Assembly: GCA_004322015.1 (NCBI GenBank)
Contig: SCQT01000032.1
Coordinates: forward strand, 44,981 to 108,980
Length of the DNA: 64,000 nt
Source: Chitinophagaceae bacterium
GTDB lineage: Bacteria; Bacteroidota; Bacteroidia; Chitinophagales; Chitinophagaceae
Direction of reading: 5' to 3'
In this document: in pieces, positions 26,756 to 27,280 of the stretch
Position numbering within the stretch: position 1 is the stretch's first letter
How the letters are laid out: every line of letters starts with the position of its first letter
Translations under genes and position numbers: made by a program
The notes under the pieces: model-generated
Told to the model about the DNA's origin: nothing
What the model saw: the letters and a program-made list of their open reading frames with translations, nothing else
The model's database searches: none

Positions 26756-26763
26756 TACTTTTG
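26756..26763 (+). promoter_or_regulatory. Bacteroidota -7 box (TActTTTG), presumed original tRNA promoter
   Basis: Exact TAnnTTTG match 37 nt upstream of the truncated tRNA copy. No comparable box lies directly upstream of the intact tRNA. Confidence 0.4.
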
Positions 26764-26799
26764 CAAGCTGTAAAACTAAAAGATTTTACCTAATTATCC

Positions 26800-26859
26800 G
26801 GTCCGGTAGCTTAGCTGGATACCTGCCGGCAGGCAGGGAGCATCAGCCTTCTAAGCGGA
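26800..26859 (+). pseudogene. Truncated 5' portion of tRNA-Arg(TCT), positions about 1-40, with a 16-nt hairpin insertion in the D-loop
   Basis: GGTCCGGTAGCTTAGCTGGATA[cctgccggcaggcagg]GAGCATCAGCCTTCTAAGC aligns with 27150-27189. It differs by 1 substitution plus the insertion at 26822-26837. No T arm or 3' acceptor strand follows. Confidence 0.8.
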
Positions 26860-26896
26860 ACTGGTCCAGGAAGAAAGTCCAAAGGGATTCGGGAAT

Positions 26897-27172
26897 ATGG
26901 CAGACAACGAGCAAAAACGGTATTATGTATACGTGCTAAAAAGTGAGAATCATTATCGTTTTTATGTGGGGATGACGGATAATGTTGAAAGGCGGGTGAA
27001 GGAGCATAATTCCGGTAAAACGAAATCTACCAAGGGATATTTACCCTGGAGTTTATTATTTTACGAGGAATGCCCTTCGAGAATGGAAGCGAGAGCAAGA
27101 GAGAAATATTTAAAAAGCGGCATAGGTAAAGAGTGGATAAAGCAACAATGGTCCGGTAGCTCAGCTGGATAG
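26897..27172 (+). CDS. GIY-YIG nuclease family protein, UPF0213/YhbQ-like (catalytic domain only)
   Basis: YYVYVL...FYVGMT (GIY...YVG), RRVKEHN and a conserved E (AREKYLK). The last 23 nt, including the TAG stop, are nt 1-23 of the tRNA gene. Confidence 0.85.
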   Translation: MADNEQKRYYVYVLKSENHYRFYVGMTDNVERRVKEHNSGKTKSTKGYLPWSLLFYEECPSRMEARAREKYLKSGIGKEWIKQQWSGSSAG

Positions 27173-27226
27173 AGCATCAGCCTTCTAAGCTGAGGGTCAT
27201 GCGTTCGAATCGCATCCGGATCACCA
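27150..27226 (+). tRNA. tRNA-Arg (anticodon TCT), CCA encoded
   Basis: Cloverleaf folded by hand. Acceptor GGTCCGG/CCGGATC, D stem GCTC/GAGC, anticodon stem TCAGC/GCTGA with loop CTTCTAA. T stem ATGCG/CGCAT with loop TTCGAAT, discriminator A, then CCA. Confidence 0.9.
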
Positions 27227-27237
27227 AAAGCAGGATT

Positions 27238-27280
27238 AATCCATCGTAAATGAATATTTTACGGTGGATTTTCTATTTTT
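27238..27280 (+). terminator. Rho-independent terminator after the tRNA
   Basis: A 13-bp stem AATCCATCGTAAA / TTTACGGTGGATT (one G-U pair) with a 7-nt loop, followed by TTCTATTTTT. Confidence 0.7.

Follow-up and report, generated by a model that had tools for sequence, protein, structure and literature searches.

A stretch of DNA of 64,000 nucleotides (nt) from a Chitinophagaceae bacterium (contig SCQT01000032.1), which we call the window, carries on its forward strand a small open reading frame (ORF) for a GIY-YIG nuclease, located between a disabled copy of a transfer RNA (tRNA) gene and the intact tRNA-Arg(TCT) gene. This unit, hereafter the cassette, starts with TACTTTTG (26756-26763), a Bacteroidota -7-type box and candidate promoter of the whole unit, situated 44 nt 5' of the disabled tRNA copy. 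The copy consists of two segments, corresponding to tRNA nt 1-22 (acceptor 5' strand, D stem 5' strand and D loop; 26800-26821, 21/22 identical, with the change C13T) and to nt 23-44 (D stem 3' strand and anticodon stem-loop with TCT; 26838-26859, 21/22 identical, with T42G). The segments are separated, at the D-loop/D-stem junction between GGATA and GAGC, by CCTGCCGGCAGGCAGG (26822-26837), a 16-nt degenerate form of the 20-nt palindrome CCTGCCTGCCGGCAGGCAGG. A 37-nt leader (26860-26896), without detectable tRNA similarity, then runs from the tRNA remnant to the ATG of the nuclease ORF (26897-27172, 91 amino acids), whose end overlaps the intact tRNA-Arg(TCT) gene, with encoded CCA (27150-27226; ARAGORN; Rfam tRNA, 67.8 bits). 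As noted previously, a terminator-like element occupies positions 27238-27280; our hairpin search found there a hairpin of 13 pairs (27238-27270) and then a T tract, the probable end of the transcription unit.

In a direct repeat search, positions 26800-26821 matched 27150-27171 (21/22) at a spacing of 350 nt, and positions 26838-26859 matched 27172-27193 (21/22) at a spacing of 334 nt, so that the upstream copy has 16 extra bases, those of CCTGCCGGCAGGCAGG. Apart from two substitutions and the 16-nt insert, the upstream copy (26800-26859) is therefore equal to tRNA nt 1-44. A preliminary description of this DNA had reported a copy of nt 1-40 with one substitution and a 16-nt insertion; the copy and the extra bases are real, but the homology continues to nt 44, beyond a mismatch at nt 42 that constitutes the second substitution. 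The insert corresponds to CCTGCCTGCCGGCAGGCAGG minus four nucleotides (TGCC) of the left arm, and is the sole match to the palindrome in the window. That no T arm or 3' acceptor strand follows the truncated copy was also correctly described: in local alignment with tRNA nt 44-77, the leader scored 10, against a shuffle mean of 10.5, with 72% of the shuffles scoring as well, and at this shuffle-level similarity we rejected that the leader is a decayed tRNA 3' half. ARAGORN identified a single tRNA gene in the window, tRNA-Arg(tct) at 27150-27226, and Rfam retrieved from positions 26000-28000 only the tRNA, and neither an intron nor any other known RNA family; both programs report an uninterrupted functional tRNA, which does not correspond to a tRNA group I intron. 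The GIY-YIG gene is the only ORF between the repeats, with no tyrosine or serine recombinase. The leader RNA folds no better than shuffled sequences (z = -0.66), and no structured RNA is evident beyond the hairpin.

The last seven codons of the ORF and its TAG stop (27170-27172) coincide with nt 1-23 of the intact tRNA, with the stop located in the D loop. Cleavage by RNase P at nt 1 of the working tRNA would thus strip the stop from the ORF and leave a non-stop messenger, and tagging of the non-stop product by transfer-messenger RNA could keep the nuclease at a very low level.

The deduced product is a single-domain GIY-YIG nuclease of the Slx1/UPF0213/Ssn-like type (Pfam GIY-YIG, E=1.3e-16, covering residues 9-74 of 91), and is 100% identical to a protein from a Chitinophagaceae metagenome-assembled genome (MAG). 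It displays the characteristics of the GIY-YIG superfamily (PF01541), namely the motifs, the conserved Arg, the His/Asn, the catalytic Glu and the fold, as modelled with AlphaFold2 (pLDDT 86; order strand-strand-helix-strand-helix-helix). All 75 homologous segments compared share residues Y12, Y23, G25, R33, H37 and E69, and 73 of them also have N38; likewise, the ratio of nonsynonymous to synonymous substitutions (dN/dS) of the ORF family, ca. 0.2-0.3 with dS near saturation, indicates purifying selection. The top Foldseek matches were UPF0213 protein BH0048 (1zg2) and the Slx1 nuclease domain (E values of 1e-4 to 4e-3), the latter with a template modelling (TM) score of 0.62-0.65 and 30-35% identity. 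Profile comparisons with the PDB retrieved 1ywl (4.6e-9), 1zg2 (1.2e-8) and Slx1 (4e-5), and only marginally I-TevI (E value of 0.37 by sequence and 0.7 by fold), as was the case for UvrC in Foldseek (E ca. 1). The earlier designation of the ORF as YhbQ-type is appropriate at the level of the branch, but not as an indication of orthology: YhbQ from E. coli shows 31% identity over 55 amino acids (E=4e-9, hhalign probability 95.8%), and yhbQ sits between yhbP and yhbS, with no tRNA neighbour. As deduced from sequence comparisons and from the structural model, the protein belongs to the UPF0213 (YhbQ)/Slx1-like branch of the GIY-YIG fold and is an orthologue of neither; NCBIfam and PADLOC gave no meaningful family assignment.

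Homologues of this protein typically have 84 amino acids, are also single-domain, and form a large family, with 5,045 clusters at 50% identity with E≤1e-10; among the best 150 representatives listed, most have ca. 80-130 amino acids. The whole protein is a catalytic domain, with no DNA-binding domain, and its seven C-terminal residues are encoded by the tRNA gene; indeed, most homologues end in KWSxSSAG immediately before the stop, which is the translated 5' end of the tRNA. Three proteins, P0361 (214 amino acids), P0368 (205) and P0374 (655), contain two GIY-YIG stretches or are much longer, and may represent read-through of tandem units or real fusions. Searches of plasmid and phage collections yielded, respectively, four and one weak protein matches, and the cassette is no known plasmid or phage gene.

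We scanned one genome per species and found at least 582 loci encoding relatives of the nuclease, from which the best 80 were kept and, together with the window, constitute the 81 loci analysed here. The ORF abuts a tRNA gene on the same strand in 76 of these loci, as the preliminary description had anticipated for homologues. In 68 loci the ORF precedes the tRNA, which starts from -20 to +187 nt from the last ORF end (median 3 nt, with 29 overlaps), and in eight loci the layout is mirrored, with the intact tRNA ending 27-70 nt before the ORF and a disabled 3' part following it. From the remaining five, two end at a contig edge inside tRNA-like sequence, one has a tRNA between two ORFs, and L008 and L012 have an interrupted tRNA-like sequence after the ORF. 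The host tRNA is tRNA-Arg in 60 of the 76 loci, with all five anticodons represented (tct 18, cct 18, acg 13, tcg 10 and ccg 1), and otherwise Met (6), Leu (4), Pro (2), Asn (2), Lys (1) or Phe (1). In all, the layout is shared by several families and phyla and extends to 12 anticodons; the cassette is widespread in Bacteroidota, mostly at tRNA-Arg genes, and a few loci from other groups (Patescibacteria, Saccharibacteria, Omnitrophota and a "Gammaproteobacteria" MAG) show the same organization.

In L008 and L012 (positions 4220-4500 in both) and in L051 (600-760), the tRNA after the ORF is normal up to the anticodon loop and then carries a GC-rich interruption of at least 200 nt, which could be an intron or other insertion. 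ARAGORN calls no tRNA for the interrupted sequence in these three loci and Rfam retrieves nothing from L008 at E≤0.01; a SNORA9 match (E=0.14) from our Rfam searches of this locus and of that in the window was considered as noise.

An upstream partial copy of the same local tRNA, defined as a copy starting at nt 1 with at least 15 of the first 17 nucleotides matched, is present in 51 of the 68 loci with the ORF-then-tRNA layout, so that the partial 5' duplication foreseen for homologues is a frequent trait of the family. The first 17-22 nt of these copies are mostly identical, or nearly so, and more of the tRNA follows past a gap of ca. 20 nt. The end of the copy varies from nt 22 to nt 75 across loci, and four loci (L069, L242, L028 and L034) contain a complete tRNA disabled by hairpin inserts; the truncation in the window is therefore most simply explained as secondary decay, and the break near nt 40/41 that had been proposed does not represent a conserved junction. 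Likewise, the idea that the element brings its own replacement 5' part is not supported in that simple form, because the tRNA remnant past the palindrome is always of local identity, including the anticodon. In L041 the duplication takes in a locus-specific terminator, indicating that the repeat was made locally. What is conserved instead is the position of the palindrome, past nt 22, and the contact of the ORF with nt 1 of the intact tRNA; at all tRNA-Arg loci the 3' end of the ORF is joined to that nucleotide. Tandem ORF arrays occur in L020 (four units), L242 (two), L010, L056, L076 and L034, and decayed remnants of further ORFs in L066 and L241. The cassette thus comprises the host tRNA promoter, a disabled copy of the local tRNA that carries the palindrome and mostly lacks its 3' side, a short leader, a GIY-YIG gene for 84-91 amino acids without a promoter of its own, and an abutting or overlapped intact tRNA. 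The window copy is best explained as an older, partly decayed member, with its palindrome cut to 16 nt and its upstream copy to nt 44, and with an intact ORF.

The element inserted in the disabled copies, CCTGCCTGCCGGCAGGCAGG, is a perfect, GC-rich palindrome of 20 nt that is usually placed between GGATA and GAGC, at the D-loop/D-stem junction. Allowing up to four errors, we found it in 65 of the 81 loci, with 83 copies in total. Elsewhere the palindrome or related hairpins occur past nt 9, within the D loop, at the edges or inside of the anticodon loop, or in the T loop; a single copy can contain two or three of them, nesting occurs, and in arrays the palindrome or its variants are found on both sides of the ORF. 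Wherever the palindrome sits in the tRNA, its end is closely linked in position to the conserved Tyr12 codon of the ORF, which follows at a median of 42 nt (interquartile range 35-54, minimum 28), and at 93 nt in the window. The hairpin is conserved as an exact sequence, without covariation. We rejected that it is a sequencing-adapter artefact, given the existence of mutated and nested variants, its fixed positions in the tRNA, its fixed distance to the ORF and its presence in isolate genomes from different projects. Clade-specific variants also exist, namely a 30-nt hairpin, CCTGCCTACCTGGCGGTAACGGCAGGCAGG, at tRNA-Met loci (L035, L065, L064, L032 and L014, with nested insertions in L032), a 19-nt hairpin, CCTGCCTGCGGTAGGCAGG, in Prolixibacteraceae-like loci (L036, L047 and L074), and TCTACCTGTCGGTAGACAGG in Algoriphagus (L241 and L069), which suggests co-evolving pairs of nuclease and hairpin. 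Full-length, well-preserved tRNA-Arg copies with one or two 20-nt palindromes, in the D loop and the anticodon loop, were observed in L043 (4467-4559 and 4635-4727), L007 (4392-4503 and 4632-4724) and L028 (3856-3970), with the intact copy in tandem; ARAGORN reports the palindrome-bearing copies in L043 as "tRNA-???", of 93 nt.

Within the 8-kb loci the palindrome copies cluster at the cassette, and elsewhere they are dispersed (at least 155 metagenome and viral loci). Exact matches were found at 35 loci in viral contigs and at least 120 in metagenomes, with a sample of 169 palindrome copies in contigs with 29-71% GC. Conservation of the exact 20-mer over this range of base composition argues for recognition by a protein over a generic RNA hairpin. 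A GIY-YIG gene appears within 1.2 kb of 10 of the 169 sampled palindromes, and all ten are beside tRNA genes or tRNA-like sequence; across unrelated loci selected by the palindrome, GIY-YIG is the sole protein family that recurs beside it (7 loci). Solo palindromes show no clear target consensus or preference for hairpin apexes, and the complementarity of their flanks is barely above the control.

Some palindromes occur in other settings. In L128, from a groundwater bacterium, a palindrome (5257-5276) is read through in frame in a 351-aa pheS ORF (…MGE-NLPAGRQ-VKLKF…), resembling an insertion of the Rickettsia-palindromic-element type in an essential gene. Among L085-L239, many solitary palindromes lie amid tandem repeats of 7-8 nt (GGTGAGA, CGTAAAT, CAAATCT), for example at L085 10596, L122 429 and L165 435, and three to six copies per contig are found in L105/L112/L113, L179 and L091.

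The box at 26756-26763 had been singled out as the sole TAnnTTTG motif, located upstream of the truncated copy. In our motif scan it is indeed the only one on the forward strand of positions 25882-27226, but the motif is not enriched across the 64 kb (64 matches vs 69 expected), and the single box in the window derives its weight from the family-wide pattern only. In 32 of the 51 loci with a pseudo-copy, TAnnTTTG occurs within 100 nt 5' of the first one, mostly 18-32 nt from its nt 1. Box density there is 6.3 per kb, 10-fold over the background of 0.62 per kb, whereas from the pseudo-copy to the intact tRNA it stays at the background level (0.60 per kb). The disabled copy thus holds the position of the original gene, and transcription of both the ORF and the working tRNA most likely starts at the upstream tRNA promoter, as had been suggested for the window.

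Presence/absence polymorphism of the kind known for SegB-type genes appears among homologues in Algoriphagus, at a syntenic site where a tRNA-Arg(CCT) gene is divergent from rpsP in 7/7 species examined. In L240, L243 and L244 the tRNA is alone, with no ORF and no palindrome, whereas L241, L040 and L069 contain one ORF and L242 contains two tandem units. When the empty site of L240 is compared with the filled one of L069, the left flank is 94% identical as far as the promoter and the right flank is 87% identical from 2 nt before the tRNA; in between, L069 has a block of 549 nt where L240 has 50 nt of leader. The ORF is the last part of this block and is preceded by a pair of disabled tRNA copies, whose hairpins sit past nt 9, past the D loop and within the T loop; the disabled copy reaches the tRNA 3' end in L069 and L242, and in L242 the stretch between two hairpins is deleted. 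The empty sites that had been predicted are thus found for a homologous cassette, but not for the locus in the window.

The cassette also changes tRNA host. For 68 comparable ORFs, the nearest ORF relative is at a tRNA with the same anticodon in 44% of the cases, above the 15% expected by chance and the highest shuffle (37%), and has a different anticodon in 56% of them, which indicates repeated moves between tRNA genes. For instance, the ORF in the window, at a tct gene, is closest to that from L001, at an acg gene from a Saprospiraceae (81% identity in the core). Sequence comparisons therefore indicate that the cassette has been gained, lost, amplified and moved between tRNA genes, whatever the direction of each single change.

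Single-domain GIY-YIG nucleases have recently been described as the Ssn family, with proteins of ca. 94 amino acids assigned to cd10448 (GIY-YIG_unchar_3) (Chenal et al., Nat Commun 2025, PMC11893778). Ssn nucleases bind NTS/SRM hairpin repeats of 20-50 nt and cut single-stranded DNA beside them, with no action on double-stranded DNA or RNA; these repeats flank the ssn gene, in an architecture that the authors noted to be like that of an insertion sequence, and are also dispersed in the genome, where the abundance of SRM is reported to predict the presence of the nuclease gene (PMC11893778). A related system thus exists, which the preliminary description did not take into account.

The explanation that we put first, and to which we give an even chance, is that the locus is a copy of a selfish, promoter-less cassette of an Slx1/UPF0213/Ssn-like nuclease, parasitic on tRNA transcription units and propagated through recombination of tRNA repeats. 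The recurrence of the cassette, its polymorphism and its switching between tRNA genes support the wider proposal, already made for the window, of a selfish element that targets tRNA genes. The whole unit would be transcribed from the tRNA promoter as one RNA, and the nuclease, like Ssn, would recognise the palindrome hairpin in single-stranded DNA and nick beside it. Breaks within the tRNA repeat would be repaired by recombination between tRNA copies; in cis, the locus would expand or contract, giving rise to tandem arrays or to precise loss down to a single tRNA, and after DNA transfer a naive genome might acquire a copy of the cassette in its cognate tRNA gene. This copying would be feasible because conserved tRNA sequence makes up both flanks of the cassette, which might be tolerated by the host since one end always retains a complete tRNA.

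Several observations weigh against this explanation. Homing based on recombination alone leaves unaccounted the constant local identity of the remnant past the palindrome when the cassette switches tRNA. The published SRM consensus, HGTCWYN(0-2)YYVSBRHN(0-5)WNVSBRGN(0-2)RNCYNB (PMC11893778), is nearly absent, with one match in 98.6 kb around the ORFs and none in the 64-kb window, which in turn has a single palindrome, and a degenerate one. In addition, 159 of the 169 metagenome and viral palindromes have no GIY-YIG gene within 1.2 kb, indicating that the palindrome has a life of its own and that its pairing with the nuclease is correlative. In-silico excision restores a tRNA for only one of the 169 palindromes and brings no gain in stop-free stretches spanning the palindrome site (45 after excision vs 57 before), and thus the general palindrome population is not targeted to tRNA genes. 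The polymorphism in Algoriphagus is unpolarised, and compatible with gain as well as with loss. Finally, no empty site was found for the window's own locus among relatives of its ThiF/MoeB-like neighbour (three contexts read); the closest protein is 69% identical, and its gene is preceded by mobA-like or KilA-N genes, not by a tRNA gene, with synteny lost.

An unlikely alternative is that the palindrome is a micro-element mobilised in trans, which a single-domain GIY-YIG nuclease acting on single-stranded DNA puts into tRNA loops and many other sites, in several phyla, without target duplication. The gene and the palindrome would then constitute a drive that disables the promoter-proximal tRNA and makes the host dependent on the linked intact copy. 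If true, this would be a mode of transposition or homing without described precedent, combining a hydrolytic GIY-YIG enzyme, a hairpin target in single-stranded DNA and a tRNA gene as portable homology.

Comparably improbable, in our opinion, is a domesticated host function, with an Ssn-like nuclease that restricts or modulates incoming single-stranded DNA bearing palindromes; the tRNA site would provide strong constitutive transcription, and the disabled copies would be by-products of hairpin insertion into redundant duplicates. The purifying selection on the ORF across families and the very large size of the nuclease family are compatible with this, as are the palindromes in phage contigs, which might be targets, and the demonstrated role of SsnA in transformation of Neisseria (PMC11893778). 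However, the patchy presence among congeneric species, the variable copy number, the tandem arrays and the decayed ORFs look selfish rather than housekeeping, and a host function would need neither an upstream partial tRNA copy at every locus nor hopping between tRNA species.

We consider quite doubtful that the preliminary description can be taken literally, i.e., that an element of ca. 350 bp inserted once near nt 40/41 of tRNA-Arg(TCT) and carried in its own 5' part. In such a case the promoter-proximal copy would be disrupted and the distal one intact, the homology of the right flank to an empty site would begin at the intact tRNA and the ORF would be fused to tRNA nt 1, and the three are in fact observed, the last one throughout the tRNA-Arg loci. 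Nevertheless, a single insertion does not fit with upstream copies that end anywhere from nt 22 to nt 75 or are complete, with two tRNA segments that are always local even if the nearest ORF relative is at another tRNA, with the eight mirror loci (intact tRNA, ORF, disabled 3' part), or with the locally made duplication of L041.

A role at the RNA level appears very improbable. The tRNA-like 5' end and the hairpin might be a processing or stability signal for the ORF messenger, or the nuclease might trim hairpin-bearing tRNA precursors, considering that hairpins occupy tRNA loops or their borders (past nt 9 and nt 22, and in the anticodon and T loops), that some full-length hairpin-bearing copies are otherwise undecayed (L043, L007 and L028), and that the ORF stop is inside the tRNA, where RNase P cleavage would affect the messenger. 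However, the hairpin is kept as an exact sequence with no covariation, the leader in the window folds no better than shuffles, most upstream copies are truncated and unable to yield a tRNA, an intact tRNA is always present and makes splicing unneeded, and SsnA does not bind RNA (PMC11893778). A chance association of a decayed tandem tRNA duplicate, in itself a common occurrence, with an unrelated small ORF in the spacer is refuted by the recurrence of the architecture of ORF, tRNA copy and palindrome in 65-76 of the 81 loci, over several families and phyla and 12 anticodons.

Should the cassette be a selfish element of tRNA transcription units, a large family of nucleases, the smallest known, with ca. 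5,000 clusters at 50% identity, would have a general means of residing in essential, universally conserved genes without destroying them. Its members would be expressed from the tRNA promoter, leave one tRNA copy unharmed and spread through homology of the tRNA sequence itself. The newly described nucleases of the Ssn type, specific for hairpins and single-stranded DNA, would then gain a concrete selfish lifestyle and a natural target context. It would also account for a class of broken tRNA genes, and for annotations of "GIY-YIG nuclease family protein" overlapping tRNA genes in Bacteroidota. Besides, the pair formed by the nuclease and its hairpin, with a 20-nt site conserved at 29-71% GC, would be new and a possible tool for single-stranded DNA.

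The genes around the cassette in the window look like ordinary housekeeping genes, with no further mobile-element gene nearby. Upstream, an ORF of 225 amino acids on the reverse strand (26041-26718) is, judging from its sequence, presumably a uracil-DNA glycosylase (ung-like). Downstream, positions 27357-28406 on the forward strand encode the ThiF/MoeB-rhodanese protein (PF00899 and PF00581), followed on the reverse strand by an ORF of 138 amino acids (28435-28851), at the position occupied by MoaE in one relative. A perfect 12-nt inverted repeat with a 3-nt loop, TTTGAAGAAATG / CATTTCTTCAAA (27278-27304), lies between the tRNA terminator and the ThiF/MoeB-like gene.

Our literature searches on the palindrome string, on GIY-YIG with tRNA, on YhbQ/UPF0213 and on SsnA with tRNA did not retrieve a description of the tRNA-embedded architecture, which is no proof of absence; the nuclease cassette looks like an undescribed selfish element living inside tRNA genes. 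It shares traits with several known systems. As occurs with islands and prophages inserted in tRNA genes by integrases, the cassette lies between direct repeats of a tRNA segment and has a complete tRNA at one end, but it spans only ca. 350 bp, contains no integrase or recombinase, repeats the 5' and not the 3' portion of the tRNA, and bears a hairpin in the extra copy. With REP/RAYT systems (IS200/IS605-like) and Rickettsia palindromic elements it has in common the dispersed, short and GC-rich palindromes paired with one small flanked enzyme gene, and insertions accepted by RNA genes and, in frame, by proteins, as in the pheS of L128. Unlike in REP/RAYT, however, the enzyme is predicted to be a hydrolytic GIY-YIG nuclease and not an HUH Y1 transposase, and the element has 20 nt and an exact sequence across phyla.

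Among GIY-YIG enzymes, YhbQ/UPF0213 and Slx1 share the branch of the fold. Slx1 needs Slx4 and a RING/PHD-type domain. SegB from phage T4 and other free-standing GIY-YIG homing genes (PMC2330249) resemble the cassette in that the gene is among or next to tRNA genes, shows presence/absence polymorphism and is expected to spread via break repair. Nevertheless, SegB-type enzymes have a DNA-binding domain and make a site-specific cut in double-stranded DNA, with no duplication, whereas the cassette protein is a catalytic domain only, part of its target tRNA is duplicated and the system includes a palindrome.

Differences from Ssn are also evident: the hairpin CCTGCCTGCCGGCAGGCAGG is outside the SRM consensus, the nearest solved relatives of the cassette protein are UPF0213 and Slx1, and in the Bacteroidota loci analysed the hairpin is nearly confined to the cassette, vs hundreds of copies for the Ssn repeat. 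Moreover, a tRNA unit houses the cassette gene, with a disabled copy on one side and an intact one on the other, while the description of Ssn makes no mention of tRNA (PMC11893778). Yet both systems comprise a single-domain GIY-YIG protein of ca. 90 amino acids without a separate DNA-binding domain, both have a GC-rich inverted repeat of 20-50 nt beside the gene (in the cassette, the palindrome or its variants 5' of the ORF in 65 of the 81 loci), and in both the same hairpin also occurs dispersed elsewhere, for the cassette in metagenome and viral contigs. Judged by this likeness in anatomy, the Ssn family is the closest described system.

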